This document shows positions 9,441-64,000 of a DNA stretch of 64,000 nt, piece after piece; the stretch's first letter is position 1; each line of letters starts with the position of its first letter. The position numbers and the translations under genes were made by a program. The DNA comes from Nanobdellota archaeon (GTDB lineage: Archaea > Nanobdellota > Nanobdellia > Woesearchaeales > SKGA01), in the NCBI GenBank assembly GCA_051819805.1, contig JBNJHD010000002.1, positions 63,754-127,753 on the forward strand, given 5' to 3'. The notes beneath the pieces were generated by a model. The model saw only the letters and a list, made by a program, of their open reading frames with translations, made no database searches and was not told the origin of the DNA.

Positions 9441-9755
9441 GTTTTTATTTATATAATGTGATGTGTAGAATATATAGATTATTTTTACAGTAGAAATCAA
9501 CGGGTAGGGGATTTAAAAATAAGCAGAATTTTATAATTCTTATCTTTCGATTCAATGCATTGTTTGACTTTTTCCACAAGAAATAATGGTTGTTGTTTCT
9601 TATAAATGTTGTGTTTTTAAATATTTATAAATGAAAAAAGAAGGATTTATAAAGGAGTGGTGTTTTGTGTAGTTTATAAAGAGGTAACAGGCAGTAATTA
9701 CACTCTACAGGAACATATCAACGTGCAATAAGTAAAATATAGGGGGGTTATCGCG

Positions 9756-10319
9756 ATGAGCGAAACACTAGAAGAGCTTAAGAAAGGACTTGATATTGGA
9801 ATCGTCAACATTGTCGTCTCAACAAGTCTCGGGCATGATATTCCGCTTGAGAAAATGGCGGCTACGCTTTCTAACACAGAATACAATCCTGAACAATTCC
9901 CAGGACTTGTGATCAGGATCAGAGATCCACGAACGTCAGCTTTGATTTTCAGTTCTGGAAATGTCGTGTGTACGGGAGCAAAGAGTCTTGAGGATGTGGA
10001 AAAATCACTTGAACAGATTAAGCAAACACTCAAGAAAATCAATGTGAACATCACGATCAAGCCTGAAATCAACATTCAGAACATGGTAGCGTCAGGAAAT
10101 ATCAATATGGATCTCAATCTCAATACGCTAGCTATGAAACTGGATAATACTGAGTATGAACCTGAGCAATTTCCAGGTCTAGTCTACAAACTCGACAAGG
10201 CACAAGCGACATTCTTGCTTTTTAGCAATGGAAAAATCGTTTGTACAGGAACGAAATCGGAGAGAGATGTCTATAAGGCAGTCCACATGCTTATTGATGT
10301 ACTCAATAAAGTCAAGTGA
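9756..10319 (+). CDS. tbp: TATA-box binding protein
   Basis: Two direct TBP repeats (NTEYNPEQFPGLVIRI... and NTEYEPEQFPGLVYKL...), 187 aa. Confidence 0.9.
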   Translation: MSETLEELKKGLDIGIVNIVVSTSLGHDIPLEKMAATLSNTEYNPEQFPGLVIRIRDPRTSALIFSSGNVVCTGAKSLEDVEKSLEQIKQTLKKINVNITIKPEINIQNMVASGNINMDLNLNTLAMKLDNTEYEPEQFPGLVYKLDKAQATFLLFSNGKIVCTGTKSERDVYKAVHMLIDVLNKVK

Positions 10320-22086: not shown

Positions 22087-22148
22087 TCACTGTACTGTTT
22101 CATTCTTCGAAACTTTTATTAACAACATAAGAGGTAGTTATTAGTATC

Positions 22149-23030: not shown

Positions 23031-23100
23031 ACTAGCGGTTAGTTTTTTTTCTCAAGACAAAACTTTAAAAAGATAGTTCGCTCCAAACTATCTCAGGGCA

Positions 23101-26100: not shown

Positions 26101-26631
26101 CCTGCAAGCAAACTCTTCGTTGATGGTAAGACGTACGAGGTCTGTATAGATACGTCTGGGAAGACTTCTTGTGACAGCTCCTGTGATGCTAACAGACCCA
26201 GTTCTTCAAAAGGAGCTTGCTACTGCGCCACTGTAGGGAATGTCGGTGATACTGTTTCTGAAGATCGTGAAGTGGATGCATATTTCAAATCACTTAGTGC
26301 AATCTATAAAGATGGTTCGTTCCATAAATTGACAGCATACCCTTCATTTATTTCTACACCATCTTGCTGCTATAAAGACGGCCAGATTTTCACATCAGAA
26401 GAAGAGGAAAAAGTATGTTATGATGGCAAGGTGTACACTGAAGGTCGAATCGATAACGATATCACTAATGCGGACTTATTAGCTTCAGAAGGTAAGATCC
26501 ATTGCTGTGGAGAAACGAGTGATCTTGGTTACTGCACTCCCTATGAGTATGGATCTTCGATAACTGTCGGTTCTGACCTTTTCAAGTGCGAGAAAGATCC
26601 TATCTTCGGTTCTCGTTGGATTGACCAATAA
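23101..26631 (+). CDS. giant (1176 aa) secreted/surface protein with a class III-like signal (TKG|QATIFVILGIVILLVV)
   Basis: KG-Q cleavage-type N-terminus plus a hydrophobic helix. The C-terminal third is Cys-rich with vicinal CC motifs. Confidence 0.6.
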   Translation: MRTKGQATIFVILGIVILLVVMLLLSAQQKIIEQRLQQEAEDSIQDFVQLYSINHYVTSCMDTVTTDGLTLLGEQGGVIYESQGGLTPDPSSEPSIKGVHYLPYDHEYTSYNSNGEEQTFIDRRNVSYAIKEFIECHSALYYSPVPVDLDDENTSYYPVKNTYFKDYQRLYVNFFFDTPPGCMGSNPKYRFSGYLGANLIPKLCYFNGSNKPYEEDDTYDPLEQTDPCRWQYYDNKDDPTSMQRQLETYVENNIGNCVDMTIFTKRVGNITVDKEAIKAESILQDPNGLLMKVHYPFDVILSNGNTYNHEVAFQKEFDVNIKTLYAYLFDLFTKMVRQPSFDLMKDWNVSNETTNRYFHSTFELDYDTQACADCSSRGVLDDIITLTDRGSLLDRKPFSMTFAIQNRKPVLNYLNDELVTSEYDGVELDYQFFTNSTITFDPEAIDPDYDNVTYIYKGWKEEYDEILNYTCCQETNDCSLETYHESDCYTLQEDAKPLNWSNSILFQKTGRMASYQSNINDTGYHEVTLVVEDEHGRKDFQIIKLIIFDLPRALLKMANFYDDVNNSFASVEDLYLFNGTASNASNLLDGEIDNYIFRDKTEGFIKNTSEGYVLIEDKPASFSNMSLFNFTKDALDDHQSLRHEISLIVEQNDMGIKATSSPVSDFINVTQCLPHGFFIPEEDEDHSSFSQEYYRIPDIEADEAREIEYYWEFEDDDPYQVPHVCCKPFDLTQEAPNITGGTWIDDKTVCFEKTFNTTYPSLDLSEPYAYLAGAWLDIGDGQLKPYTYERYDNIYGDALSDLYMSGFPENAENLDADDINNIYEVSYKHKCSGSSGKMCAGELDVDWNVIDECNDLENDASDLLGAKDPVARCQGPGMEGNDEPFTQRKAGQDLNGGLVCANFTGKSNYEKDVLAVTADNYDDFSYFNLDNDDAQLIEEGYCAQPENGLSIDADDASIEISSHGKGPFTCQAICADGACGYYNYEFCACGSDGDSECEDIPASKLFVDGKTYEVCIDTSGKTSCDSSCDANRPSSSKGACYCATVGNVGDTVSEDREVDAYFKSLSAIYKDGSFHKLTAYPSFISTPSCCYKDGQIFTSEEEEKVCYDGKVYTEGRIDNDITNADLLASEGKIHCCGETSDLGYCTPYEYGSSITVGSDLFKCEKDPIFGSRWIDQ

Positions 26632-26723
26632 AAGGTCAAAACATTTATAAAGAGGTTGTGGTTAAATTACCATAATCGAGGCATCTATGAGGGTAAGTTG
26701 CCTCCACTGTACAGTTAATAAAG

Positions 26724-29700: not shown

Positions 29701-30896
29701 ATCCTACAACTCTATTGACGGATATGATACAACCAGCATATCAAGATAAATCAATAGCTCATGGAGTTCATAAGCTCAAATATTTCTCCATGGATCCTGC
29801 GAAAAATATTGAAGTAATCAATTCAACAGAACTATTTATCGATAGCACTGCTCCGGAAATATATTTTGATCGAGAAGAAGATCTCAATATATCAACATTC
29901 AGACTTCACGACATTTATCTTAGCAACGTCACTATCAATTTCAAAACTTCAGAACAGGCACACTGTCATTACGAGATGACATATATATCGTCTTCAGGAG
30001 AAGAACTCACTTATGGACCTGATGATATGGAACGAGTCAATGATACGTTTGAAGCGAACTATCGGTTCGTGCCTGATAATTTCTATAACTTCACCATAGT
30101 CTGTGAAGATGAGTATAAGAACAGGGCAAGAATGTCAATACCATTATGGGTTGAAGGAGATGTCTCCATATCAAGAGCTCAACCGAAATGGAAGGTGTAC
30201 AATGCAGACCAAATAGAAGATATTCTTCTTTCACTCCACACACTGGATGAAGCGAACTGCAGATTCGATCCTGAGAATCCTACTTATGATCAATCACGCT
30301 ACAGCTTCGCACCCACAAATCAAAGCACATATCATGTGAAATTATTCACTGAGTTCGTCAATGATCTCGCACCGCAAAATGTTGAAGGAGTCTACTCCTA
30401 TTACACTGCGTGCAATTATACGAACAGGACACTCACAGAAGGTTTGCTCTCGGATATGATATTTTTCTCCATAGATGTGACTGGTCCAGAAACACAACTT
30501 TTTTACTTGAAAAACAATGATTATGAATTATTCCACGAAACAGGAAATGATGCTACTCCACGAGCATCAGAACGATCCATTAAAATATTCTGCGATGATT
30601 CCAATGGGCAACTTCCAGGAACAACTTTCGGCTGTAAAGAAATCCATTATTGTTATAGTGATAGTTCAATTCTTGACCTTACGGACTTCAATCCAGAAGA
30701 AGATTGTGAAAACGGAGAACTATTAAGCACTCATGGAGAACCATACTTTGAAGATACTTTGGATTTCACTACAGATACGAATAAGAAGTTATACTTCTAC
30801 GGTATTGATAATGGAGGAAATGAAGGAGATCTTCATAGGAAGAACTTGAAAGTGATCGACACGAATTTCACACGACCAATATTTACAGTCATCTGA
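26724..30896 (+). CDS. giant (1390 aa) Cys-rich secreted protein (Sec-type signal)
   Basis: GTG start. Signal peptide LFISLGLLTLVFVLFSTIVTADI, abundant CxxC and CCC motifs and an EGF-like cysteine spacing. Confidence 0.6.
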   Translation: MCRVVKKQLFISLGLLTLVFVLFSTIVTADICVPSYIDIDGVSGTQQTLSYPQSNSCPPMHELVEGDLREDKETLERTSCCCDCSDDYEVLRFGAPSGYEHLVSTTYCTEKGFDVGVTDETNCTISCKNECDGNQQVLIEESDLYHVVSGYVFSAADSDPLANISVFALDQGDDVIVEAKTDAEGFYNLSSVPGVQNGENKFLAMTSSTHELTCEDNIENVELTEDTELNFTMSSCQQNPDYCMPDWEIGEWGECKPYFSQGFDGQYMQRRSVIDLNECDRSSGKPENWRLCEGTVVMPNCGNGELEEGEFCDPATQEGSEIFKLPDGDTVTQVTCKDILGEGYSDDELITCTDTCNYNYDSCTPVCGFYCDRKEECAMEECESLCEGEPLCGNECEGQKPVFLPVNDSVDFSTTRNIFDLYNTTVLAPDHYPGIRYFDQSTDVELTWRFNGTCEDEILAYQVVYCEENARSQECQGDTRQKIEVPKGQFQYLVEGILEPKTSYCYNVCAIQRDGSTSCAYEEGSLPCFNSGEEYCMEEHPPGYNCEEHDDGEYAPTGCLIKEFKGYGREPISFTNHSYEVAVTCEQGEVCVETEYDPLNDGGGEKLGAMCKAPLNCSTCNGMFGLYSSVPGKRITYTNDNDQEKKVSCNKFINPTPEQFSTNWAGLCYYDTSRTSFDYFDQCMKVDSCYDYKSEQACANDPCNKMDGACQWSFYSEESGIGVCKPIDEQYEECGRCDADSPLGFCNEHICENNYGNCYYREPSKNTIDQSEENILVSLLGISYQNERYDDELIPTCINKKDMACHLYQNEKDCINDSANTSIDVTYEGMTPLYGTNELMFASQDRYGFGRCAWSESEDEPDFSGCHKNSDNRYNDSLSWSGFTQGDCYSTAYSSDLRCLQDVTPPNTMLILRKPPQNQNYLGLPTYGINELANLTFSVDDDTWAADESTTYFSILSEQECPAECYDFTCNNMNDQECIRTANNCKEQGCGVYPTTLLTDMIQPAYQDKSIAHGVHKLKYFSMDPAKNIEVINSTELFIDSTAPEIYFDREEDLNISTFRLHDIYLSNVTINFKTSEQAHCHYEMTYISSSGEELTYGPDDMERVNDTFEANYRFVPDNFYNFTIVCEDEYKNRARMSIPLWVEGDVSISRAQPKWKVYNADQIEDILLSLHTLDEANCRFDPENPTYDQSRYSFAPTNQSTYHVKLFTEFVNDLAPQNVEGVYSYYTACNYTNRTLTEGLLSDMIFFSIDVTGPETQLFYLKNNDYELFHETGNDATPRASERSIKIFCDDSNGQLPGTTFGCKEIHYCYSDSSILDLTDFNPEEDCENGELLSTHGEPYFEDTLDFTTDTNKKLYFYGIDNGGNEGDLHRKNLKVIDTNFTRPIFTVI

Positions 30897-30927
30897 AGTT
30901 CAATAAAAAGAGGTTGGGGATTGATTT

Positions 30928-33900
30928 ATGCATGTCACTAAAACAATATTTCTGTTATCACTCATACTGTTAGTTCTCACACTCCCTCTCTCTTCAGCAG
31001 AATTAGATTTTGACGATATCACTTTTGTAGAGACAAACAAGTCCCGACCAGTAATCAAAGCTTCATACAATCTTCAAGACGCACCAATCACTATCAAGGA
31101 TTATTCTCTAGTCAACAATCATGGTGAGAAAGTACCTATAACCTACTCTCATAATGATGATAGGAACAAGTTCAACTTCTCACTCGATACTCAAGGTTCA
31201 TTATTCGGTAAATATGTTCTTCAAATAGTCGCTAGTGATCAGGATGATAACCTGAACGTTGATTTTTTTGGAATAGATGTCAAGCCAACACCTATGAAGA
31301 TATGGGTCAAAGAACCCAAAAATGATGATATTGAAATTCCTGAACAACAACACATTGCAGTCAATGATCATATTCCATTCAACCTCACGCTCCAATCAGA
31401 AACTTCTGCCTTGTGTCGTATCGTGAAAAACACGGGTTTTCTAGAACAAAAAACGACAGATCAACTCTACAATCTCGGAAAACGATTCAATGATGGCAAT
31501 AACACGTTTACGAAAACCCACAAGATATCTGTTCTCACTCAAAACCAAGAGAGTTCTCAAACACATCTTAATGTAGGATCCTTTGACTATGATGATTACG
31601 AAGAGGAAAACCATTATTTGGTCATCTGTAAAGAATTCAAGATAGGAGCGCAAGAACCTGATTACAAGAGACAACTATTCTACATCGGTTATGATCTCAC
31701 TGATCCTGAGTTCACTGTAAATATGACTCCACAAGTTATTTTTGATGAGTCCAGCCTCGAGACAGAAGCTCTTATAGACTCAAATGATGATAGTCTCATC
31801 TGCTCGTATGATTTCATCAAGAATACACAACCGCAATACAAGCCAGAAAGTAGAAGACTTTCATTCAACACGAATTCAATAGAAGACTATAGTCCGAATA
31901 TCACGTCAACATTTGACTTTTCTGATAAGGGAACTTACGAGTATGAGACGGACTATCCATACACTATCAACTTCACTTGTACAAACCCTGCAATGAGAAT
32001 TTCTTCAGAACTAGCATCATTCAAGATAAGGCTCAAACTGTCATTTGATATTCTCTATGAAGATTCAGGATATTATTCAACATCAAGTCCTGAGCTTCAT
32101 TTCAGAACTAGGAAAGCAGCTTCTTGTCGTTATCAATTCGACTCCGAAGACTATGAGAATACTGATGGGGATGAACATAACCATACAGTGAAATTGAGCA
32201 ATCTGGAAGAAGATGAGTACTCGATAAAACTCAGATGCACATCTTTAGGCGGTGAAGTGAAAGAAGACGTTTTTGACTTCACGATCGACACGACAGCACC
32301 ATCAACACCTGTTGCGCTATCCAGTGATGATAATTGCAATAATCGATGGACAATCTCACTAGCTGAACCTTCTGAAACAGTCTATTATAATATTTCGCTC
32401 TATAACAGCACAAAAGCAACAGAAGGAAACCTCTTACACCAGACACTCACTTCATTCACGAAAGGAATGTTCATGTTCGAAGCACCGGATACTATCGATG
32501 TACTTCCTAATGCCACCTATATTTGGAAAATAACAGCTATTGACCGTGCAGGGTTAACATCAAGCGAGCTTTCGCATTCGACAATAGGAAGACGTCCTGA
32601 TGCTATTGTCTGTGATACTGACTATCCGACTGCGACATTGCAGAAAAAGCCAGTAGGTGAAAACTCATTCAATATCACTATTTCATGTTCTGACAAGCAT
32701 AGTGGCTGTACAGATATGTACGGTTATTCAGAACTGTCTCCCGGTCAAAATTGTTCAGTAGCAAGCTACCAGAATAATAACTATAACGACACACTCACTA
32801 TTCCTTCAGAAACACTATTATGTTATCAAGTAAGGGATGAGGCAGGTCACACGACCAATAAGAGTGAATTTTTATCAACAGATATAGGGATAGAATTAGT
32901 ATCACCTTCCTCAGGTATTGCTTTTGAAAAACCTTTCCAACTCGCTATAAGCACGAAACGAGAAGCAATATGCCACCACGGACCAGTCCGAGATGATCAT
33001 CCACGAGCTCTAGATGAATGGTATGTTTCTCTGGAAAACTTCACTTCTCAAAATAGCCTCGACCATTATGATTCTATAGCAGCAACCGATTATGAAGAAT
33101 TAGATGAAACTGAAGATGAGATTGAAACTGACTGGATTGTCATTTGTCAAGAAGAAGAATTGACCTATCATCAGAAACAATTCTCTCTAGGATATGATTT
33201 GAGTCCTCCAAAAATAACAATCACAGCTACACCAAACCCTATTACAAGCGCTTCAAAACAAACAACAACACTTGAAGTGACTGTTGATGATCAGGCAATA
33301 TGCACATTCCTTGACAGAGAGGGCGTTCCGAGAGGGTTTTCAGGATATGATCCTGACGATATTGATAATTACAAGCAATCATTCTCAACAGTGATCGACT
33401 ACTGGGGATTCACAGAGACTATAACACAATCTGTAAAGTGCCGGAATCTCGCTCAAAAATATTCACAAGAGACATATGATATCAACATAGAATCAGATAA
33501 TGATCTAGGAATCAATATTACAACCCCTGATTATACCAATAACAACAGAGTAGAACTAGTCGCCACCACTACTGACGATGCAACTTGCTCCTATCAGACT
33601 TCCCGAGCAGGACCACAGAGAGAATTCCAGATTACAGGAGGAACAGAACATACTAAATATATAACTCTTGAAGAAGGAAGCAATACAGTAGGTGTGTACT
33701 GTGAAGATGCGCAAGGAGGCTCAGAAAGCATCGTGTTCAAAGATGTCACGGTTGATACGATTCCACCGGTTGTTGAGATACTTTCAGCAGAAAACACCTG
33801 CTCACTAGAGCAGATTTCAGGAATGATATTGACCAACGGAACAGGATCAGCAATAGAAACATACACCTACTCCATCAATAATGGTTCAGCAACCATAGTG

Positions 33901-35652
33901 AGTGGTGAGAGTGAGATTGGTTCGTTTACAGAACAATTCGCTCTGACACGAGCAAAAACATATACGATCACTGCAGAAGCTACTGATAAAGCAGGAAACA
34001 CAGCCACAATCTCAACAACTGTCAGGGCAACACCGTATTCCCAAACCGAATGTGATGTGACTCCACCGGAAGGAAATGCGAAAATAAGCTATAATTGGAA
34101 TTATAATGAAGTGACTGTTTCCTGTAAGGATGAAGAGTCCGGTTGCACTGATTTTTATACTTACTATTTGTCCCAAGACTCTTGCCAACAGCCATATGAT
34201 CTCGAATATTATGAACAAGCACCTTTAGAAGTTACTGATTCAGGTGTTTTTTGCTATGAAGTATATGATAACGCTGCAAACTCTTATACTGATTCAGTAC
34301 CGATCACAGTCGAGAAGCAATGCTTCAACGGAATAGAGGATCCTGATGAGGATGGAGTAGATTGTGGCGGTCCGTGCCCTGCACAGTGCGGAACTTGTGA
34401 CAATGGAAAACAAGATCCTTTTGAGTTGGGTGTGGATTGCGGTGGAATATGTGAGAGCATCAGGACATGCACTGGAGAGGATGACGACGAAGATGAAGGA
34501 TGCAGTTCTGACGATGATTGTCCGTACGGACAGATATGTAATTATGAAGGGCTATGTGTCGATGAACCTAAAAATGGATCCGATAAGGACAAACCATCAG
34601 AGCCGATCGATGAAGGTCCTGAAAAACTAGGTCTTATACTCCTCATTATAGGAATATTCTTATTTCTTGGAGGAGGAGGATATATAACTTATTCTCGATA
34701 CAACAAACACCAGCAGATCCAGCAACAACAATCAGTCGTGCAACAACAGATGCAACAACGTCAACAACAAGAGCTTGCTCGAAAACGTCAAGAACAACGA
34801 CGTAAAACCATGGAACGACTTCATGAACGTAAACAGAAACAAGAAGAAGCACGCCAGCAACGAGTCAACGAACGACAACAAAAACGAAAATCACTGCTTG
34901 GCGCTTTCGAAGGAGAAAAAGGACAAGAAGAACAGCAGGATTCTGAAGAGAAGTCAGAGGAAGAGCAGAAAGAACAAGAAGAAGTGAAGAAGAAAGTTTT
35001 TGAAAAACAAAAGGATGAAACATCATTACGTGAAAAGAAAGAACGACAAGAACAAGAGAAACAACAAGTTGCAAGAGAAGAATACCAGAACATCATGAAC
35101 TTGAAATCAGGAACTAAAAAGGAACGCAGTGTCTTTGATGAGCTGGAAAGCGTTACTACCAGCAGTGTTTCCGCAGAAAACCTTCAGGAAAAATATGATC
35201 TCTCAGAACCACAATCTGACTCTACTGACAATAGCGCTTCAGAACAAAATGCGCTTGACGAATTAGGATCTATAACTGAAAATCAAGAATCATCATCAAG
35301 TCCACAAAACGATACTGATACCGGCGGATCTCAACCTTCAGATTCGTCTGATGCGCTCGATGAACTTGAAGAACTGGTCAATACCAGACAAGATCGTTCA
35401 TCAAAAAATCAGTTACTTGAAGAGCTTTCAAATATAGCTCCTGAAAATAGAGTGCACAAACTCGTTGAACAGATAGAAACACAAGCATCCAAATCAATAC
35501 TCGACACTACTGAATTAGCGCAATCCATTAAGCAATTGATTTCAAACGAACTTGTTTCTTCAGAGCAAGCTAAGCAAACGATAATAACCCTTGTCAAGAA
35601 TCATACCTTAACAGAAGAGCAAGGCGAAGAGCTAATAAACACTATCAATTGA
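30928..35652 (+). CDS. giant (1574 aa) surface protein with an N-terminal signal, a C-terminal TM anchor and a roughly 320-aa Q/E/K/R-rich cytoplasmic tail
   Basis: Signal ...LPLSSA|ELD, TM LGLILLIIGIFLFLGGGGYITY near residue 1245, then QQQSVVQQQMQQRQQQELARKRQEQRRK... low-complexity coiled-coil-like tail. Confidence 0.6.
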   Translation: MHVTKTIFLLSLILLVLTLPLSSAELDFDDITFVETNKSRPVIKASYNLQDAPITIKDYSLVNNHGEKVPITYSHNDDRNKFNFSLDTQGSLFGKYVLQIVASDQDDNLNVDFFGIDVKPTPMKIWVKEPKNDDIEIPEQQHIAVNDHIPFNLTLQSETSALCRIVKNTGFLEQKTTDQLYNLGKRFNDGNNTFTKTHKISVLTQNQESSQTHLNVGSFDYDDYEEENHYLVICKEFKIGAQEPDYKRQLFYIGYDLTDPEFTVNMTPQVIFDESSLETEALIDSNDDSLICSYDFIKNTQPQYKPESRRLSFNTNSIEDYSPNITSTFDFSDKGTYEYETDYPYTINFTCTNPAMRISSELASFKIRLKLSFDILYEDSGYYSTSSPELHFRTRKAASCRYQFDSEDYENTDGDEHNHTVKLSNLEEDEYSIKLRCTSLGGEVKEDVFDFTIDTTAPSTPVALSSDDNCNNRWTISLAEPSETVYYNISLYNSTKATEGNLLHQTLTSFTKGMFMFEAPDTIDVLPNATYIWKITAIDRAGLTSSELSHSTIGRRPDAIVCDTDYPTATLQKKPVGENSFNITISCSDKHSGCTDMYGYSELSPGQNCSVASYQNNNYNDTLTIPSETLLCYQVRDEAGHTTNKSEFLSTDIGIELVSPSSGIAFEKPFQLAISTKREAICHHGPVRDDHPRALDEWYVSLENFTSQNSLDHYDSIAATDYEELDETEDEIETDWIVICQEEELTYHQKQFSLGYDLSPPKITITATPNPITSASKQTTTLEVTVDDQAICTFLDREGVPRGFSGYDPDDIDNYKQSFSTVIDYWGFTETITQSVKCRNLAQKYSQETYDINIESDNDLGINITTPDYTNNNRVELVATTTDDATCSYQTSRAGPQREFQITGGTEHTKYITLEEGSNTVGVYCEDAQGGSESIVFKDVTVDTIPPVVEILSAENTCSLEQISGMILTNGTGSAIETYTYSINNGSATIVSGESEIGSFTEQFALTRAKTYTITAEATDKAGNTATISTTVRATPYSQTECDVTPPEGNAKISYNWNYNEVTVSCKDEESGCTDFYTYYLSQDSCQQPYDLEYYEQAPLEVTDSGVFCYEVYDNAANSYTDSVPITVEKQCFNGIEDPDEDGVDCGGPCPAQCGTCDNGKQDPFELGVDCGGICESIRTCTGEDDDEDEGCSSDDDCPYGQICNYEGLCVDEPKNGSDKDKPSEPIDEGPEKLGLILLIIGIFLFLGGGGYITYSRYNKHQQIQQQQSVVQQQMQQRQQQELARKRQEQRRKTMERLHERKQKQEEARQQRVNERQQKRKSLLGAFEGEKGQEEQQDSEEKSEEEQKEQEEVKKKVFEKQKDETSLREKKERQEQEKQQVAREEYQNIMNLKSGTKKERSVFDELESVTTSSVSAENLQEKYDLSEPQSDSTDNSASEQNALDELGSITENQESSSSPQNDTDTGGSQPSDSSDALDELEELVNTRQDRSSKNQLLEELSNIAPENRVHKLVEQIETQASKSILDTTELAQSIKQLISNELVSSEQAKQTIITLVKNHTLTEEQGEELINTIN

Positions 35653-47717: not shown

Positions 47718-48352
47718 GAGGAAAAAAGGCTCAACACGAGATGGATCTCACTTCCCTAGCTGCAGGTCTTGTCTTCATTATAATAGCATTCATCATATTT
47801 TCGCAAGTTGCTGATAATATCAGAATGAGTAGTGAAGAAAGAACTCTCCAAGAGGAAATGGAGCTAGGAGTTTCCAGGCACTTAAGAACGTTGCTTGAAT
47901 CCCCTGCAGATTATCAGGGATCGAAAGTGAAAGTTTCAGAACTCATACAGGATTATTACTATTATTATCTTCAGCAAGAAGAAGATGTTTGCGAGATACA
48001 TAGTTGTAGTGATCACATGATTCTCATAAAAAAATCAATACAAGAAAGTGTTGATCATTCATCAAGACTACTTGAAGGAAACAAGGATATCAATACATAT
48101 CTGATGAAAGCAGACGATCCTGAGATAACGCTAGGGGAAGTCACGTATGATGTAGATCCCCACTCTCGAAGTTGCAGCAGAAATGACGATGAGTCTTATT
48201 ATTGTGTTGGAGGAACTGTCTTCTCCTCTGACGCAGTGTTTTTACCATTACGAACTCACGAGTCACTTTCAGGATATGATGAGTATGTTATTGTGTTCGT
48301 CTTCGGACTTTATGACGTTGAAGCACAAGCCAGTTACTCGAAAATCGTTTGA
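47714..48352 (+). CDS. class III signal peptide (pilin-like) protein
   Basis: ATGA overlap; MRGKKA|QHEMDLTSLAAGLVFIIIAFIIF shares the K-A-Q motif. Confidence 0.45.
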   Translation: MRGKKAQHEMDLTSLAAGLVFIIIAFIIFSQVADNIRMSSEERTLQEEMELGVSRHLRTLLESPADYQGSKVKVSELIQDYYYYYLQQEEDVCEIHSCSDHMILIKKSIQESVDHSSRLLEGNKDINTYLMKADDPEITLGEVTYDVDPHSRSCSRNDDESYYCVGGTVFSSDAVFLPLRTHESLSGYDEYVIVFVFGLYDVEAQASYSKIV

Positions 48353-48363
48353 ACACTAAAAAA

Positions 48364-51300
48364 ATGAAATCGCACATGAAAAGCTCAAAAAAAGGAGTTT
48401 CACTCCTACTATCAAGTATATTCGTTTTACTGATGGTCATAGGAATCATATTAGCAGTCTATAATCCTGACGAGCAGATAGATATAGGGTCTAAACAATA
48501 TCAGGTACTGATTTCAAACGAGAAAGCCTCAGCGATTGATTTATTCATCAAGCAAGCTTTCAAGTTATCTTCTGACTATTCAGTCGATATATTTTTTCAC
48601 AACAATGGTGTATTCAACGAAGAGACTGAAGACGGAGAACACACTGAACACCAATGCGGAAAATACCTCGCACCTCTATTTTTCAAGTCCTCGGAGGATC
48701 CTGATGCATGTTTTCCTGATTTCAGAGATAATTTTAAAGCTTATCTCGGTACAGACTTCAATAAGAAACTTCTCACATATCCTGAAATAGATCTTTATTT
48801 CAATCCAGAAATATTCATCGGAGAACAAAATGACTTCATAACATGCGATGGTTCTTCATCACTAGCACAAACTTATATTGAGCGGTCAAACAAGGAAGCA
48901 TGGAATACAGGTGGAAAAACTTATCTCGAAACCGCTTTTGAGGTGGCAGCTGACACAGGTGCTGACCCTGCTTTACTTCTCGCCCATGCATCAATGGAAA
49001 GTGCTATGGGTGAAGATAATACGTGCACAAATCAAGGAAAGAGTTCTCTGACAGGCTGCGGTTGGCTTCCAACTTGTTCAAAAGACTGCGGTTGTGAAGA
49101 TACACGCGGTTATTTCGAATCAGACACTAGCCAATTCCAATGCACAGCTCGTGTCGATAAGGCTGCGTTCGCAGGGGAAGGATCGTATGAGAAATGCACA
49201 CCATATAGAGATAACCCTGAACTGCTTTTCAATTGTGTCATGTGTGTTTATCAAGGAAATTATGATACTGTCATTCCAGGAGGTGGAGAAAAATACTTTA
49301 CAAAAGATGATACATGCCGTTATGCAGAAATCGTTTCATCATTATATTGTGGTTGGAATAAGTATCTGTCTCAAGAATACGAGGAAGAAATTCTTAGCGA
49401 TGATAAAGTAAGCTCATTTGTCTCAATGGAAACAGAAGAAGCTATTGAGATACCTATACTGACTCAATCCGAGCTACGATCAGATATCAACCGAAAATCA
49501 TATCCTAACGGTCTGCTCGGAGGGTTCCAGAACGAACGAATAATACCTTGCGGTTCTTCAACGTGCTTAGCAGATATTGCCGAATACTATCATAGTCTTT
49601 ACAGGCAGTATCCGTATGTGTGGGGAGGAGAATCACCATACTCATATCAGGATACAAAACCATTAACTGAAGAACAAGATTCGGTATTCTACAAAGTTTC
49701 AGTGACAAGAAAGCAACCTGAAAAAGTCGCATTCACAGAACCAGGATTCGACTGTTCAGGATGGGTCTGGTGGGTCGCTTCACATTCAAGTGCACAACCA
49801 CTCAGCATACGAAATGATGCGGAAGGCTTTTACAGGATGTTACAGAAATCAACGGATGCACAACCTGTTTGTGATAAAGAAAACGAGAAATCCTGTTCAA
49901 AAGAGACTATTATCAATAACGCACAACCAGGAGATATCTTATTCTACAAAGGACTTCATGATCCTAAAGTAACTCATATCATGATCTATCTCGGTGAAGG
50001 AGTCATCAGTCACTCTCGAGGATCGAAAGGTCTTGTCAAAGAAGATATTCCACCATCATACACTAATAACATACAAGCAGTTTACCATCTCAAAGGATCG
50101 GCATTCAGTGGAACTCACGATTCACTTGACTCCTACTTCAAGAATAGCGATGAAGAGTTATCCGAGTCAAAAGGTTCTTGTGTCTTACCAATTGATTTCA
50201 CGCAAATCAATGAAGAAGCTATAGATTCGACAAGAGTATCTTTTGAAGAACTCCAGGAAACAATCATTAAGAACGATCTTGAACAGACCATTCAGGAAGC
50301 GTCCAAAAAATACCGTATTCCAACAGCATATATCAAGGCGATAATCACGACAGAAGTAGGTGGATCGAAATATCTCGATAAATACTTATCAGGAGAAACA
50401 ACAATAAGCGAGAGCAATATGAGAGGTCCGATGCAATTATCACGTGTGGCTTGCGATACTCTAAATGATGCAGAAGCTGATTCGTGCGACCTCAAAGTTA
50501 TAGAGAAAGGTGATGTGGAAAACGCGATCATGACTTCGACCAGATTCATAGCGCACCTCAGGGACACGACACAATATATTGACAAGAACAATCCGGATTA
50601 TTACATGTTATCGCTAGCTTACAATGCAGGTCCGGGAAGCCTGAAATATATTCTAGAAACTGCAAGCAAGAGAACAGGAATACATCCTGAACAACTACAA
50701 TGGAGAGATATCACTTATAATGACATACAAAACGGGCTCAAAGACACAGGTAAAGATTGGGCTGATGATGAAGACAAATGGAAAGAAGTCCGAGAATATC
50801 CTAATCTTGTCGCTCAATCACTCTCTGAGCAGTGTCTAGGTAATCCTTTGCTACCGAAGACAAGAAGCAGTATCCGATTAGAACCACAAGCTTATGCTAC
50901 TGTCAATATAGATTTCAATCTATTAGAAACGATTGAAGAATTCACAATTTCGCTACAATCATGCAATGATGATCTTGACGTTTGCGTTTCAGAAAAGACT
51001 GATGAGTTCAACCAAGAGTTCTATGATGTTGAAGTTATCGATACAGCTAACGAACTTGACAGGCATTCAACTCCTCAGGATTCAAAAATAATCCGTTCAG
51101 GAGTATATCTTACTGAACTCTCTTCTCAAGATACGAAATCAAGTAATGATGTGTTTGCAATGAATTTCCTTAAACAACTGATTGACTGCTCAACTAATTC
51201 CCAATCAGGATGTGTTTGCATGATAAATTCAAATACTTCAGAATTGCAAGCTGAACAAGTGACATTGAAACTTGCGTGGAACGAACGAAGCTACCAACCA

Positions 51301-52998
51301 GCATCCGAGGCAAACATTTATGTCAATGGAAAACCAAAAGGTTCAATTTCACTTCTCCCACTGAACTTGTTCAAGGAAGATGAACGCTCCGTTGCACCGA
51401 AAGACATAACATTCACCTTCACTAAGAAAAACATTATTATTGAAACATCATCTGGTTTTGAACAGACTATCTCACCGAATCAACAACTAGCAACACTCAA
51501 ACATTTCTCGCTTCAAGATTATACTACTAAGAGTCATCCTTATGATCGCTCACTTATCAACATCAACAAGTATGAACGTTCAACTTCGGCAATGGACTAT
51601 CAAAGCCAGTCACTTGATTTATCAGGTTTGTTTTTTGATAATTCCGATCAAAATCTGCCTTCAGGATCATTTGACCAGTTCTATAATGATGAATTGAAGA
51701 ATTTTATGAAGTTAACGAGAGATGATAAAGAAACATCTGATCGCTGCACGCAAGTCGTCTCCTATGCCCAGAGATATCTAGGTTCGGGATATGGCGGAAC
51801 GGGAGTGTGCACTGCAGAACAAGCTGAACGAGAAGAATGCACTACACAATGCGGATCGTATGTCACTAACGTATTCAGGGAGATTTTTGATGAGGTGCTT
51901 CTGGGTAATGGCAACCAAAAATGCGAATCTGCAGAGTCTGTCAGCGCCAACAGATTCACCAATCCTGAATTGCTTAGAGCAGGAGATATATTCTCTTCAG
52001 ACGGACGATCAGATGCTGCACAGAAATATGGTCACACAGGAATATATGTCGGTAAAGGTTTCGTTTCAGAACCAGCACGTGATTCATCATGGGGAACATA
52101 CTCGTACAAGAGATTCACTCCAGATCCGAACGGAGAGCATGTGTTTATCCATTCTATAGGACCAGTTTCATATAATACTTTATCACAACTCATTTCAGAG
52201 GATAAGCAGGCGAGAAACATCATCAGCTTCTGTAGATATGAACCATGTAAGGAACAAGATGATCCTATCAATGGTTTTGATGTCAAGAGTGGAATGACAC
52301 TATTCTCTTACGAAAAGGATGAGAATGAAAATCATGCTCCATTTATCTGCAGGGATAATTCAGATACTTATCTTTTCAGAACAGAATTTCCTCAGATGCC
52401 TGGAAAAACGATTGATTTCGCTGCAGAACTGAATGACACTGTCGCGCCTGAAACGATCATACAACAATCTGCAAATCAAGCTTCATGCGCATCCAGTCCT
52501 GCTATCATCTTCTCATGGAAAGATGATACGGAACATCTTTATGGGTATAATATCACTGTATGGGCAGAAAATGATAATGAAGATGAAGGAATATCATACA
52601 TCGTACCTCTCACTCATGCTGAATACGCTGATACGAAACCAGAAAACCCGAAGACACTCCACAAGCCTTTCATCACTCAAGATAGTAAGGTGAAAACGTA
52701 TCATTATATGATAGGAAACATCAACAATATACCTTTATTCAAGATCAACACCACTTACTCCTATAAGATAACTCCTTTGGACAATCATTTCAACAGTCCG
52801 CAATCAAGCGATATAGGCAGTATCACTCTCCGTGATTCTGATGAAGCGATAGGACAATTATCAACTATACTATTCCAAGATTCGACACTTTTTGATCTCT
52901 ATTCAACTACTAAAGATCTGTTCAAAGGAGAATGCTCCAATTATCTGGAAGAACTAGCGGAGCAACGAGAAGAAGTACTGGGTGAGATGAGCTCATGA
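48364..52998 (+). CDS. giant (about 1545 aa) multi-domain cell-wall hydrolase with a class III-type signal: N-terminal lysozyme-like region, NlpC/P60 peptidase, GH23/SLT lytic transglycosylase and a second NlpC/P60/CHAP-like domain
   Basis: The ORF-track start 48349 is a TTG overlapping the upstream stop; the first ATG is at 48364 (MKSHMKSSKKG|VSLLLSSIFVLLMVIGIILAV). NlpC/P60 #1: YPYVWGGESPY...GFDCSGWVWWV...GDILFYKG...HIMIYLGEGVISHS (about 49560-50040). SLT: IPTAYIKAIITTEVGG...GPMQLSRVA...LSLAYNAGPGSLKYIL (about 50290-50700). Second NlpC/P60-like: RYLGSGYGGTGVCT...GDIFSSDGR...GHTGIYVGKG...EHVFIHS (about 51740-52170). An additional ...LLLAHASMESAMGED E-S region sits at about 48850-49100. Confidence 0.7.
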   Translation: MKSHMKSSKKGVSLLLSSIFVLLMVIGIILAVYNPDEQIDIGSKQYQVLISNEKASAIDLFIKQAFKLSSDYSVDIFFHNNGVFNEETEDGEHTEHQCGKYLAPLFFKSSEDPDACFPDFRDNFKAYLGTDFNKKLLTYPEIDLYFNPEIFIGEQNDFITCDGSSSLAQTYIERSNKEAWNTGGKTYLETAFEVAADTGADPALLLAHASMESAMGEDNTCTNQGKSSLTGCGWLPTCSKDCGCEDTRGYFESDTSQFQCTARVDKAAFAGEGSYEKCTPYRDNPELLFNCVMCVYQGNYDTVIPGGGEKYFTKDDTCRYAEIVSSLYCGWNKYLSQEYEEEILSDDKVSSFVSMETEEAIEIPILTQSELRSDINRKSYPNGLLGGFQNERIIPCGSSTCLADIAEYYHSLYRQYPYVWGGESPYSYQDTKPLTEEQDSVFYKVSVTRKQPEKVAFTEPGFDCSGWVWWVASHSSAQPLSIRNDAEGFYRMLQKSTDAQPVCDKENEKSCSKETIINNAQPGDILFYKGLHDPKVTHIMIYLGEGVISHSRGSKGLVKEDIPPSYTNNIQAVYHLKGSAFSGTHDSLDSYFKNSDEELSESKGSCVLPIDFTQINEEAIDSTRVSFEELQETIIKNDLEQTIQEASKKYRIPTAYIKAIITTEVGGSKYLDKYLSGETTISESNMRGPMQLSRVACDTLNDAEADSCDLKVIEKGDVENAIMTSTRFIAHLRDTTQYIDKNNPDYYMLSLAYNAGPGSLKYILETASKRTGIHPEQLQWRDITYNDIQNGLKDTGKDWADDEDKWKEVREYPNLVAQSLSEQCLGNPLLPKTRSSIRLEPQAYATVNIDFNLLETIEEFTISLQSCNDDLDVCVSEKTDEFNQEFYDVEVIDTANELDRHSTPQDSKIIRSGVYLTELSSQDTKSSNDVFAMNFLKQLIDCSTNSQSGCVCMINSNTSELQAEQVTLKLAWNERSYQPASEANIYVNGKPKGSISLLPLNLFKEDERSVAPKDITFTFTKKNIIIETSSGFEQTISPNQQLATLKHFSLQDYTTKSHPYDRSLININKYERSTSAMDYQSQSLDLSGLFFDNSDQNLPSGSFDQFYNDELKNFMKLTRDDKETSDRCTQVVSYAQRYLGSGYGGTGVCTAEQAEREECTTQCGSYVTNVFREIFDEVLLGNGNQKCESAESVSANRFTNPELLRAGDIFSSDGRSDAAQKYGHTGIYVGKGFVSEPARDSSWGTYSYKRFTPDPNGEHVFIHSIGPVSYNTLSQLISEDKQARNIISFCRYEPCKEQDDPINGFDVKSGMTLFSYEKDENENHAPFICRDNSDTYLFRTEFPQMPGKTIDFAAELNDTVAPETIIQQSANQASCASSPAIIFSWKDDTEHLYGYNITVWAENDNEDEGISYIVPLTHAEYADTKPENPKTLHKPFITQDSKVKTYHYMIGNINNIPLFKINTTYSYKITPLDNHFNSPQSSDIGSITLRDSDEAIGQLSTILFQDSTLFDLYSTTKDLFKGECSNYLEELAEQREEVLGEMSS

Positions 52999-59107: not shown

Positions 59108-59860
59108 ATGTCAATTCCTTCTTATGTCGCTAAAAACATCATTATCAGTCTGGATTTTGATGGGGTTCTCGCTCATGGACTCAATGCTAAAAAGAAGTAT
59201 GCTAAAAAGTGGTTCGGCCTTTCTCTGTCGCTATCACAAACAAAAAAAGATGCCTTTGAAGACTTTGCCCGTAAAGAAGGATTAAATATCAATTATAGAA
59301 GTTTAATGGATCCCCTCAATGAAAAACATATTATGGAATATGAAGTTCCTGAGAACTGTATTCCAATACTGAAAAAGCTTCATTCTCAAGGATTTCGCTT
59401 TGTTATCATAACGTCAAGAAATGATCATGATTATCCTTATGCAAAGAAATTTGTAAAAAAAAGATTCGGGAAGTTGATACGGCATATACACAATACTAGA
59501 AACAAACCCAAGACTGAATTCATCAAGAAGCTGAAACCAAGAATACATATTGATGATGACCTGAAGAAATTACACCATATAAGTGGAGAATGTCTTGATC
59601 TCTGTTATTACAGACAACCAGAAAACTACCATGAAGATTTGATTGATGATGCTGGCCGGATAACTGAAATAAGATCATGGCGAGAGTTCTATGATTTTTG
59701 TCATCATCAGAAATTACTCTATGAAGCTATTTGTTGGAAATATAATCTGAAAAATAATGTGTTCAAAAATAATCTGATATTCAACCATCTCAAAAGAATT
59801 CCTGAAGCTTCACAAAAAAAACTCATTCAAGAATATGTGTTTTTTCAAAAAAAAGCGTAG
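59108..59860 (+). CDS. HAD-superfamily hydrolase, 5'(3')-deoxyribonucleotidase-like
   Basis: Motif I IISLDFDGVLA, motif II FVIITSRN and motif III K...PRIHIDDD. Confidence 0.55.
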   Translation: MSIPSYVAKNIIISLDFDGVLAHGLNAKKKYAKKWFGLSLSLSQTKKDAFEDFARKEGLNINYRSLMDPLNEKHIMEYEVPENCIPILKKLHSQGFRFVIITSRNDHDYPYAKKFVKKRFGKLIRHIHNTRNKPKTEFIKKLKPRIHIDDDLKKLHHISGECLDLCYYRQPENYHEDLIDDAGRITEIRSWREFYDFCHHQKLLYEAICWKYNLKNNVFKNNLIFNHLKRIPEASQKKLIQEYVFFQKKA

Positions 59861-60306
59861 GGTCGCGTAAGCCGCCTTCTGTCGAAGCCGAAGAACCGAC
59901 TTGAATTCAGTTCCGATACTTCGTGACCGGATTCTACTGAGCGTCAATAATTGACTTGCACCGGCAGGGGCGCGTTGTTTCATCCTTTCTTCCGGAGACG
60001 TCAGCGAGTTAGCTTACTACAGGTCACCCCGTAGCGTCGTACGCATCATCCCATTATCCGAAAGCGGTCTCGCACTCGGACATGTAGGATGTCCTGAAAA
60101 AATCCAACAGTACTATTTCATACCGATAAGATCATATTCGCGCGTGAAATGCAGTCAGCATCTCCTGTTTCTGTACGGTTGCCACTCCTCTTCGGAGTCT
60201 CGGCTTGACGATAGCACGTCTTATCCGAGCTGCCATAATGCCCAAAGGACATTGGTGGGCGGACTTTCCTAAAAGCATAAAGCTCTTGACCGATCCGCAA
60301 ACCCTA
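59860..60306 (-). ncRNA. rnpB: RNase P RNA (archaeal type), about 445 nt
   Basis: This is an ORF-poor island more GC-rich than its flanks. On the minus strand it reads ...AGGAAAGUCCGCCCACC... (P4 5' strand, CR-I) and ...CGACAGAAGGCGGCUUAC... (CR-V, P4 3' strand, GGCGG pairing with CCGCC). The 5' GGGUUUGCG... can pair with the 3' ...CGCGACCC (P1). A perfect TTTATAAA lies 26-33 nt upstream of the predicted 5' end. Confidence 0.7.
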
Positions 60307-60330
60307 CAATAAGTAAGAATTCAATATCAT

Positions 60331-60338
60331 TTATAAAC
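60331..60338 (-). promoter_or_regulatory. TATA box (TTTATAAA) for the RNase P RNA gene
   Basis: An archaeal TATA consensus centred about 28 nt upstream of the predicted RNA 5' end at 60306. Confidence 0.45.
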
Positions 60339-62522: not shown

Positions 62523-63005
62523 TTATTCTCTACTGATGTCAACAACATCTGCATCGTTGAGTATAACGAGTTTCCGTGGGTCTATAGTGATGGAATCCTC
62601 TAGCGTTCCCGCAGAGAACACTACTTTGTCGTTATCAAGAAGCAGACGATCTATATATACCTGAATCTCCCATAATTTACCGAACGGCGGAACACTGCCG
62701 ACAATACAACCCGTGAGATCAAACACGTTGTCAGGCGATGCAAGCGAGACATTCTTCTCACTCATGATCTGTTTTAAGGCCTTGAGATCAGCACGACGAT
62801 GAGCGGGAACGACCGCTTGGAATAATCGGCCGGATTTCGTCTTGAGAACGAGCGCTTTAGCGCCTTTATGAAGAGAGGTCCCCCTGATTTCAGAAGCTCC
62901 TTGAGAAGAACGAGGAATAGTCTCGTGATGAATGTGTCCATAATCGATATCATAAGCATCAAGCAATTCCTTGATACGAAGCAGGGTCTCTTCAGCCATG
63001 ATCAA
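62523..63005 (-). CDS. YbaK/ProX-family aminoacyl-tRNA deacylase
   Basis: GAKALVLKT...GCIVGSVPPFG motifs; 160 aa. Confidence 0.75.
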   Translation of the reverse strand: MIMAEETLLRIKELLDAYDIDYGHIHHETIPRSSQGASEIRGTSLHKGAKALVLKTKSGRLFQAVVPAHRRADLKALKQIMSEKNVSLASPDNVFDLTGCIVGSVPPFGKLWEIQVYIDRLLLDNDKVVFSAGTLEDSITIDPRKLVILNDADVVDISRE

Positions 63006-64000
63006 TCACTCTCTATCATGATATACGCAGATGATCTGATACGGACTGATCTGATTGAAGACAATCTCTTTAGAGAAGAGTTCAAAATTAGTGCTCTGTT
63101 GAGAGTATAATGTGCCGAACGGTTTGTTGATAGATACTGGTGATTCTCTCGAGCTATCGAAACCGACATCGTATTTGCCTTTGTAATCAACACCGACCCG
63201 ATACTTGAAATGCTCTCTATTAGACAGGTTGATGACACAATACCATGACCGCTTCGAGCCCTGAGTTTTATCCTCACGCCTGATGACAAGGATCTTATTC
63301 TGCTCGTCAACATTGATATATTCCCTGTACAGTGTATTCTCAGGCCAGAATGCGGGCTGACTGCTAATAAGCTCGTTAATAGCTTTCTTGTACAAAGTGG
63401 TCTTCTTACTATCAGGATACTCATGTAGCAAGTGCCAATGGATGCTGCTATCATGCTCGAAAGTACCTGTCTGCAATAAGAATGTCTGAGGAAGGTCGAG
63501 GATGCGTCCTTCACAACCGAAGGCGATGATCGCTTCCATGACTCTGATCTTACCCATGGCATGTGGTTTGACTTCAGGCCGTTTGAGGATGAGAGCGTCA
63601 TAGGCGTATGAGCCGGTAGCGCGCATTTCCATAAGACCTGCAGCAGCGTCGTGATTATGGAAGTCAGCAATCGTGCTGTTAGAGCGACCCCACTCCTTTT
63701 CTTCCTTGATACGCTCAAACGTCCAAGTGGAGATTTCCTCGATCGGTTTAGGCATGTATTCCTTGTGAAAATAATATGTGAGGCGAGAACTGTTATATGC
63801 TGTTGCGCCAAGTGCTCGATCATAGGAACTATGTGGAGCAACAAGCATTTTCGCATTATCGCCGTAGAAGTAATGGGATTCAAGATGGAACAATGTCAAG
63901 GGGTTGATATCATATGTCTCTTTGATTAGTTTGCGAAGGAACTGTCTACCATGAGGACGTTCATCACCCTGACCAGCATCACCGTAACGAAGGATGCCAT
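63006..64000 (-). CDS. calcineurin-like metallophosphoesterase (C-terminal about 330 aa; 5' end beyond the window)
   Basis: My own upstream extension of the frame reads ...ILRYGDAGQGDERPHGRQFL...IADFHNHDAAAG...HWHLLHEY, i.e. GDxxD / (G)NHD / H-x-H phosphoesterase motifs. The frame is open to position 64000; the ORF-track start is a TTG. The alternative frame 63002..63883 is judged spurious. Confidence 0.4.
   Translation of the reverse strand, partial: GILRYGDAGQGDERPHGRQFLRKLIKETYDINPLTLFHLESHYFYGDNAKMLVAPHSSYDRALGATAYNSSRLTYYFHKEYMPKPIEEISTWTFERIKEEKEWGRSNSTIADFHNHDAAAGLMEMRATGSYAYDALILKRPEVKPHAMGKIRVMEAIIAFGCEGRILDLPQTFLLQTGTFEHDSSIHWHLLHEYPDSKKTTLYKKAINELISSQPAFWPENTLYREYINVDEQNKILVIRREDKTQGSKRSWYCVINLSNREHFKYRVGVDYKGKYDVGFDSSRESPVSINKPFGTLYSQQSTNFELFSKEIVFNQISPYQIICVYHDRE

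Follow-up and report, generated by a model that had tools for sequence, protein, structure and literature searches.

Background

Ribonuclease P (RNase P) is the enzyme that trims transfer RNA (tRNA) precursors, and variation of the peripheral elements of its RNA subunit is the norm. Archaeal type M RNAs are defined by the lack of the helix P8. In eukaryal nuclear RNAs the P15-P18 region is reduced or absent and the P12 region is variable and enlarged, and in bacterial RNAs extra helices adjoining the module of conserved regions (CR) II and III, P13/P14 in type A and P10.1 in type B, brace the fold. An L7Ae-binding P12 with a terminal GNRA loop has been described for archaeal type A and type M RNAs, and in type M L7Ae is expected to bind in P12 only (PMC5499556). 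The P19 position, joined to P4 by the joining region J19/4, is named in human H1 RNA (PMC13022451), from which we take the term P19-like used below. Here we describe a minus-strand RNase P RNA gene of about 451 nucleotides (nt), at about 59857-60307 of a 64-kb stretch of a Nanobdellota contig (JBNJHD010000002.1), the whole of which we call the window. Nanobdellota is the phylum of the DPANN archaea that contains the Nanoarchaeia, and since the protein genes of the window encode Orc1/Cdc6, the PolD small subunit, RPA and NurA, all of archaeal type, the window is archaeal.

With a probability of about 95%, we read 59857-60307 as the gene, present in a single copy, from which this archaeon makes the catalytic RNA of its RNase P. 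The gene as such is ordinary and essential; the structural form of its RNA is unusual, and the differences lie in the periphery. Below we present the homology, synteny and covariation of this RNA and its orthologs, and then consider its expanded and reduced elements in relation to the known RNase P RNAs.

Results and discussion

An archaeal RNase P RNA that scores below the Rfam cut-off

The first-pass annotation, made from the letters of the window, had proposed an RNase P RNA gene on the minus strand and had tied it to a score above the gathering threshold of RF00373, the archaeal RNase P family (RNaseP_arch), which is curated at 84 bits. With permissive filters this model aligns to 59859-60304 of the minus strand over its entire length (positions 1-288 of 288) with 70.4 bits and E = 2.1e-19. 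Thus, the family is matched as predicted, whereas the score falls short of the threshold on which the proposal was staked. When all 4227 families were run over the whole window, RF00373 was the sole one with E <= 0.01 (E = 1.8e-17), and chance resemblance to RNase P RNA is therefore excluded. A score below the threshold is too strict a refutation criterion here, because the match spans the full model and is the only one in the window, syntenic orthologs in two further lineages also score below the threshold, and compensatory substitutions keep the helices paired.

The alignment to RF00373 indicates where the score is lost. Between CR-II and CR-III, 174 nt are left unaligned where 45 are expected, with P12 among them; P8 has 20 nt against 3 expected and the P15 arm 4 nt against 36; and 38 nt had to be inserted between the 3' strands of P2 and P4. 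The shortfall is due to these large insertions, with P12 staying unaligned and so adding no score. Its cause is lineage-specific expansion, chiefly an insertion of about 95 nt after CR-II, along with a longer P8 and a hairpin in J5/7.

The compositional features noted in the first-pass annotation were also recovered. The RNA region has a GC content of 0.46-0.52 as against 0.30-0.40 in its flanks, and its open reading frames (ORFs) are all short (42-60 amino acids, aa), including the 60-aa ORF 60118..60300; none of them is kept in position or frame in the ortholog described below. The presence of such ORFs, along with ORFs of 63-66 aa in the equivalent gap of related records, could be taken to mean that the region encodes a small protein and that its resemblance to an RNA is incidental. 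We consider this exceedingly improbable: the ORFs of the orthologs differ in position and frame, the substitutions track base-pairing and not codons, the insertions and deletions are not multiples of three, and the Rfam E-value is of the order of 1e-17. In the gene lists of the related NCBI records these hypothetical ORFs (L132:3748-3939, L134:7248-7448 and L136:5870-6067) are the only genes in the gap, and they are probably spurious calls made because the RNA went unrecognised. It is plausible that the RNA gene was left unannotated in the window too, since pipelines that apply the Rfam cut-off would miss it and the related gene lists show only ORFs at this site. No tRNA genes were found in the window by ARAGORN or Rfam.

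The conserved core

The elements of the universal RNase P core are present in the RNA in their canonical order. The two P4 strands that had been singled out in the first-pass annotation each occur once in the window, AGGAAAGTCCGCCC at 60257-60270 and ACAGAAGGCGGCTTA at 59868-59882 of the minus strand, and they are complementary; in 100 dinucleotide-preserving shuffles neither occurred, even with one mismatch allowed. They pair as AAG-(bulged U)-CCGCC with GGCGG-CUU to give the P4 pseudoknot of CR-I (GNAANNUC...) and CR-V (ACNNNANNNNGNNUA). The terminal pairing proposed for P1 is likewise present and can be extended by 3 bp beyond the ends first proposed, with G60307 pairing with C59857, so that P1 comprises 11 bp with a bulged U. 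P5 is formed by CACC/GGUG, and P7 and P10/11 are also present. CR-II and CR-III flank P12, the CR-IV joiner (AGNNNNAU) precedes the 3' strand of P2, and P1, P2, P3, P5/P7, P8, P9 and P10/11 follow one another in the canonical order with covariation. Thus, the P4 pseudoknot, CR-I to CR-V, P1-P3 and the P7-P10 cruciform are all intact.

P12 has a base of 8 bp, AUGAUG and CUGA motifs and a GUGA loop, all of which are conserved or invariant across the lineages compared below, and four pairs of its distal stem are changed on both sides. The AUGAUG/CUGA motifs make up a candidate kink-turn, the exact register of which could not be fitted by hand. With this candidate kink-turn P12 resembles the L7Ae-binding P12 described earlier (PMC5499556), and L7Ae may bind it.

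By analogy with the well-studied archaeal enzyme, from which each of the following steps is drawn, transcription of the RNA would start at a TATA-box promoter and stop at an oligo-T run, and the RNA would fold into the universal RNase P core. P1-P4 would constitute the catalytic domain, in which the P4 pseudoknot would hold the metal ions for catalysis, and P7-P12 together with CR-II and CR-III would constitute the specificity domain that reads the tRNA elbow. In conjunction with the archaeal proteins POP5-RPP30, RPP21-RPP29 and L7Ae, the RNA would then remove the 5' leader of pre-tRNAs.

Orthologs in a DPANN sub-clade

The nearest homolog of the NurA protein of the window (50% identical) lies on locus L120, which is syntenic with the window and has the gene order RPA, ABC transporter, helix-turn-helix (HTH) regulator, gap, 342-aa protein, NurA and tRNA-editing protein. 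The gap holds a 448-nt RNase P RNA that scores 71.4 bits (L120:8472-8919). A search with the 345-aa neighbour showed that the L120 lineage recurs in two NCBI 'Ca. Woesearchaeota' metagenome-assembled genomes (MAGs) and two Logan assemblies (L134-L137). The RNAs of L120 and L134-L137 are 448-450 nt long; that of L134 (7079-7526) scores 71.6 bits and in a MAFFT alignment differs from that of L120 at only a couple of positions. The same search yielded a third lineage, L131-L133 ('Nanoarchaeota archaeon'; 345-aa neighbour 47% identical), with an RNA of 441 nt that is identical in three independent assemblies and scores 51.5 bits in L131. The E-values of the window RNA and its orthologs span 1e-12 to 1e-19, and the whole sub-clade, comprising at least three lineages, scores below the threshold. 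The window and L120 RNAs are about 80-86% identical, and the neighbouring proteins of the three lineages are only 47-55% identical. At a further locus, L121 (NurA 40% identical), synteny is lost and no RNase P RNA was found within 18 kb.

In the Rfam alignments of L120 and L134 P8-P11 are mis-registered: a block of 139 nt is left unaligned and the third hairpin of the insertion is aligned as P10/11. Pairwise alignment with the window shows P8, P9, P10/11 and CR-II to be intact in both. Below-threshold covariance-model alignments of such expanded RNAs should not be taken literally.

We also scanned species-representative genomes for the P4 5' strand (AGGAAAGTCCGCCCNCC), which gave at least 119 loci. 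Among the matches listed, about 50 are Woesearchaeota, Nanoarchaeia, Iainarchaeum or 'Methanosarcinales' MAGs, and many are RNase P genes of bacteria (Chloroflexi and others) that have this P4 too. Several of these bacterial loci (L002, L004, L012, L019, L020, L053, L102, L109 and others, from Anaerolineae/Chloroflexi etc.) share the exact 17-mer AGGAAAGTCCGCCCNCC as well as ACAGAAGGCGGCTTA, and the P4 variant is therefore not lineage-diagnostic. L131 is not among the matches, its P4 reading GUCCGUCC. A clade-specific 20-mer gave only nine matches in a metagenome scan, all attributable to chance and lying in unrelated, mostly coding sequence. The 19 closest relatives by nhmmer, among the matches listed, carry the same P4 variant and align through the core; they are 295-436 nt long and score 93-166 bits, all above the Rfam cut-off. 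The window RNA is thus an outlier in a well-behaved clade.

Compensatory changes and the question of a decaying copy

A consensus fold of the window and L120 RNAs was computed with the P4 strands held single-stranded, P4 and P5 being added by hand. It recovers P1, P2, P3, P7, P8, P9, P10/11, P12, P15, the P19-like element and the new helices described below. About 120 pairs were tabulated between the two RNAs; none is broken, 14 have both partners changed and 17 have one partner changed (via G.U). In the alignment of the three lineages, 98.0% of the cells of 118 pairs are paired and 27 pairs are changed on both sides; the observed value was reached in 0 of 500 shuffles on any of five measures, and sliding the 3' partners by 1-3 columns brought pairing down to 38-45%, with 0-5 pairs changed on both sides. 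In the core helices (1-12) 83-100% of the cells are paired, with changes on both sides in P1, P3, P7, P8 and P9. All eight P4 pairs are kept in the three lineages (100% paired, one as G.U in L131), and the six pairs of P2 are 100% paired with four varying on one side. P3 is far longer in L131 than in the window. That 98% of the pair cells are still standard pairs indicates purifying selection on the structure.

Certain points weigh against our assignment. The score of 70.4 bits is below 84, and at curated thresholds Rfam gives zero matches in the 64-kb window. The window covers only 64 kb of the genome, and a second, more canonical copy might lie elsewhere. Transcription of the gene is predicted from its sequence. 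The covariation comes from three lineages only, and the structure was partly derived from the same three-lineage alignment, so that it stands out from the slid controls somewhat more than it should; the core helices, however, agree with Rfam's model, which is independent of that alignment. Finally, for L120 and L134 the register of the Rfam alignment is partly wrong around P8-P11.

The low score and the limited part of the genome seen would also fit a decaying, non-functional copy, with the functional enzyme encoded elsewhere or being of the protein-only kind. This is very unlikely, as all the universally conserved elements are intact, the same expanded form is found at the same syntenic site in three lineages with neighbouring proteins only 47-55% identical, 98% of the pair cells in those lineages stay standard pairs, and the promoter and terminator motifs are conserved.

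A structured insertion after CR-II

The most conspicuous departure of this RNase P RNA from its relatives is the insertion between CR-II and P12. The CR-II to CR-III span typically measures about 90 nt, but comes to 190 nt in the window and 193 nt in L120. The insertion itself measures about 95 nt in the window, about 97 nt in L120/L134 and about 53 nt in L131, and it is absent from 19 of the 19 relatives outside the sub-clade. It begins with hairpin I (60146-60164; helix 13), in which the three lineages show four pairs altered on both sides. A closing helix of 5 bp (60140-60144 with 60071-60075; helix 14) comes next; it is kept in all three and encloses hairpins II and III. The latter two covary between the window and L120 and are replaced by a much shorter segment in L131. 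The insertion is attached at fixed points, and its proximal helices are conserved while its distal parts vary, which is the behaviour of an expansion segment.

Introns and insertions in the genes of stable RNAs are a known trait of DPANN archaea. The insertion could accordingly be an intervening sequence, such as an archaeal intron or another excised element, that is removed after transcription to leave a canonical mature RNA of about 355 nt. Its variable length (about 53 to 95-97 nt) would fit this, as would the junction that its deletion creates, ACAGAAAC-GAGACC, which is collinear with CAGAAAC-GACACG of the relatives. We scanned the insertion boundaries for bulge-helix-bulge motifs, using a 4-bp central helix, 3-nt bulges, relaxed outer helices and both possible arrangements, and all the matches obtained were weak; their positions in the window and L120 were not homologous, and no conserved motif emerged. 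Moreover, the helices of the insertion are kept by compensatory changes, as is expected of a functional part of a mature RNA, though a self-folding intron could match this pattern too. Excision thus appears unlikely, and retention is favoured by the lack of a conserved bulge-helix-bulge motif and the covariation inside the insertion. The extra elements are best read as expansion segments retained in the mature RNA, where they probably stabilise the specificity domain.

Expansions at other sites are seen in individual relatives. L050 has the next-largest CR-II to CR-III span (171 nt), with the extra sequence at another site; about 80 nt lie within its P12 (L050:3286-3683). In L031:2648-3083 there are about 75 extra nt in the P19-like element and extra sequence in P12, and an insertion of about 40 nt lies between the 3' strands of P11 and P7 in L023 and L037. 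Expansion at several sites seems common in the wider clade.

Peripheral elements around the catalytic core

The RF00373 alignment shows that the type A arm is missing from the window RNA: P16, P17, P6 and L15 are absent. J5/7 folds as a hairpin of its own in place of P6, and hairpins at the same site, in a shifted register, are also found in L120, L131 and several relatives. The inner helix of P8 carries pairs changed on both sides; P8 is longer still in L131 and short in the relatives outside the sub-clade.

The P19-like element consists of an outer helix CGAAG/CUUCG, an internal loop UAUC / UUCGG and an inner helix, and in a 15-sequence alignment 11 of its 12 pairs are changed on both sides. 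A 4-bp P15 without L15, P16, P17 or P6, combined with a two-helix P19-like element, is common to all 19 Woesearchaeota/Nanoarchaeia-type relatives; equivalents of the P19-like element were found in L035, L076, L028, L050, L111, L009, L034, L022, L037, L030, L023, L115, L120 and L131. The internal loop reads AUCG on the 5' side and UUUGG on the 3' side in the wider clade, and UUCGG on the 3' side in the sub-clade of the window. This helix-loop-helix with an unpaired GG on its 3' side resembles a displaced P15-L15-P16 module; an L15-like role for it is pure speculation.

It is conceivable, though we hold it only tentatively, that the RNAs of the Woesearchaeota-type Nanobdellota constitute an undescribed class of RNase P RNA. 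In such a class the L15/P16/P17 arm would have been lost and the helix at the P19 position, with its invariant unpaired GG (UUUGG/UUCGG), would have taken over a role near the active site, such as binding the 3' end of the substrate or a protein; the three-helix module and enlarged P8 of the sub-clade would brace the specificity domain in the manner of bacterial P13/P14; and current covariance models would miss or under-score the class. Full-text literature searches, of incomplete coverage and hence weak as evidence, gave no account of how RNase P RNA is built in DPANN archaea of the Woesearchaeota type.

Expression signals and neighbouring genes

The coordinates of the RNA elements and of the flanking features are collected in Table 1. 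The first-pass annotation had proposed a TATA-type promoter for the gene, and the octamer TTTATAAA is indeed found upstream at about the proposed distance, one base away from the position first given for it (60331..60338). An identical TTTATAAA lies 23 nt upstream of the RNA in L120/L134, where the surrounding upstream sequence has diverged, and L131 has TTTATAT 28 nt upstream of its RNA. With 10 occurrences, where 2.2 are expected, the octamer is in excess in the window, which fits promoter use in this genome, a single occurrence being weak evidence by itself. Elsewhere in the window, three exact TTTATAAA boxes lie within 57 nt (9624-9680, plus strand) in a 315-nt intergenic region upstream of ORF 9756..10319. 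At the 3' end of the RNA gene, the run of T residues has a conserved counterpart, T7, in L120/L134.

Convergent to the RNA gene is an ORF for a nucleotidase of the NT5C/HAD type, at the stop codon of which the first-pass annotation had placed the 3' end of the RNA. The two are indeed adjacent, but they do not merely abut: the RNA overlaps the TAG (59858-59860) by a few bases, so that the stop codon coincides with the last paired bases of the RNA and the T8 run falls in the last codons of the ORF. The nucleotidase gene is missing from the locus in all the syntenic relatives, in which the HTH regulator gene directly follows the RNA. Its best homologs are 61-64% identical, as against 47-55% for the neighbouring genes, and this greater closeness suggests that it was inserted at this locus.

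Two further regions of the window deserve mention. Giant ORFs are found at 17041-35652 and 48349-52998 (plus strand). None of four consecutive ones (1681, 1176, 1390 and 1574 aa) matches a Pfam family at E <= 1e-5, and a fifth, which is of 1549 aa and conserved in L120, carries cell-wall hydrolase domains (NlpC/P60 and SLT). Such giant ORFs are typical of DPANN surface or host-interaction proteins. At 63002-63899 (minus strand) two long ORFs in different frames, of 293 and 297 aa, share nearly all of their extent. One of them is probably the C-terminal part of an alpha-amylase-like gene of about 667 aa that runs off the end of the window, as suggested by synteny with L120 (11605-13608).

Table 1. 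Features of the RNase P RNA gene and its flanks in the window. Helix numbers are those of the covariation count; changes on both sides refer to the three lineages.
Feature	Position	Strand	Basis and remarks
TATA box TTTATAAA	60330..60337	-	last base 22 nt upstream of G60307, the first paired G of P1; centre at about -26/-27
RNase P RNA gene	59857..60307	-	RF00373 match, orthologs, covariation; Rfam-aligned part 59859-60304
P1 5' strand GUAGGGUU-U-GCG	60296..60307	-	pairs with 59857-59867; helix 1
P2 5' strand GAUCGG	60290..60295	-	pairs with 59925-59930 (CCGGUC); Rfam alignment, helix 2
P3 hairpin, short	60271..60287	-	Rfam alignment; helix 3, 2 pairs changed on both sides
CR-I / P4 5' strand AGGAAAGUCCGCC with bulged U	60258..60270	-	helix 4
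J5/7 extra hairpin AAUGUCC-UUU-GGGCAUU	60237..60253	-	site of the P6 5' strand in type A RNAs
Extended P8, CUCGG/CCGAG plus inner helix GACG/CGUC	60199..60229	-	helices 8, 9
P9 hairpin ACUCC-GAAGA-GGAGU	60184..60198	-	helix 10, 3 of 5 pairs changed on both sides
CR-II ACAGAAAC (J11/12)	60167..60174	-	Rfam alignment; invariant in the three lineages
Structured insertion between CR-II and P12 (5' of P12)	60071..60166	-	about 95 nt; specific to the sub-clade
P12	59989..60064	-	basal stem CUUUCGGA/UCCGGAAG, AUGAUG/CUGA box-C/D-like motifs, distal stem, GUGA tetraloop; helices 15-18
CR-III GAUGAAACA	59976..59984	-	Rfam alignment; invariant in the three lineages
Minimal P15 hairpin GUCA-AUUAU-UGAC	59943..59955	-	4 nt against 36 in the model; covariation in the wider clade
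CR-IV-like joiner AGUAGAAU into P2 3' strand	59931..59938	-	Rfam alignment; invariant in the three lineages
P19-like element between the 3' strands of P2 and P4	59883..59923	-	helices 20, 21; 15-sequence covariation
CR-V / P4 3' strand ACAGAAGGCGGCUUA	59868..59882	-	unique in the window; covariation count
T8 run, likely archaeal terminator	59847..59854	-	2 nt past the end of P1; function predicted
NT5C/HAD-type nucleotidase ORF, 250 aa	59108..59860	+	convergent to the RNA; TAG at 59858-59860

Implications

As RNase P RNA is universal and essential, the presence of the gene is expected. Its score is of wider consequence: at least three lineages of a DPANN sub-clade lie below the Rfam cut-off, so that standard annotation makes their genomes appear to be without RNase P RNA. 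Loss of RNase P is real in Nanoarchaeum equitans, and an apparent absence of this kind could feed wrong inferences of loss and leave space for spurious calls of small ORFs. These RNAs further indicate that genome-reduced symbionts can expand a ribozyme, here by a covarying module at an unusual site beside the CR-II/CR-III region that reads the tRNA elbow. The minimal P15 and P19-like helix of the wider clade recall eukaryotic RNase P RNA, and thereby provide a data point on the swapping of peripheral elements around a fixed catalytic core.

Comparison with known RNase P RNAs

The window RNA has several close counterparts, among them the Woesearchaeota/Nanoarchaeia-type MAG RNAs (L035, L076, L081 and others, 19 in all). 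They share with the window RNA the P4 variant GUCCGCC/GGCGG, the minimal P15, the P19-like element with AUCG/UUUGG and the core of P12. They differ in their length of 295-436 nt and scores of 93-166 bits, in lacking the insertion after CR-II and in having a CR-II to CR-III span of about 90 nt as opposed to 190 nt.

The archaeal type A RNAs of RF00373, such as those of Methanothermobacter thermautotrophicus and Pyrococcus furiosus, are matched over the full length of the model, with P1-P5, the P7-P10 cruciform including P8, P10/11 and CR-I to CR-V, and also in the long P12, which bears C/D-box-like motifs and ends in a GNRA loop. Unlike them, the window RNA has a P15 of 4 bp without L15, P16, P17 or the P6 pseudoknot, adds the P19-like helix, the J5/7 hairpin, the extended P8 and the 95-nt three-helix insertion, and scores under the cut-off. 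The loss of the P16/P17/P6 region is shared with the archaeal type M RNAs of Methanococcales and Archaeoglobus. However, these are smaller and have neither a P19-like helix nor an insertion at J11/12, whereas P8 is present, enlarged and covarying in the window RNA, which is hence not of type M.

Eukaryal nuclear RNase P RNAs, such as human H1 and yeast RPR1, likewise have a helix directly before the 3' strand of P4, at the P19 position (PMC13022451). The window RNA does not have the P3 helix-loop-helix of the eukaryote type, and its sequence is clearly archaeal; the architectural likeness is probably convergent or a matter of shared loss. As for the extra helices of the bacterial specificity domain, the insertion of the window RNA similarly adds helices beside CR-II/CR-III, but these stand 5' of P12, straight after CR-II, whereas P13/P14 stand 3' of P12, and the two have no sequence similarity. 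Thus, the window RNA fits no described archaeal type cleanly, since type A needs the P15-P17/P6 arm that is missing here and type M lacks the P8 that is present.

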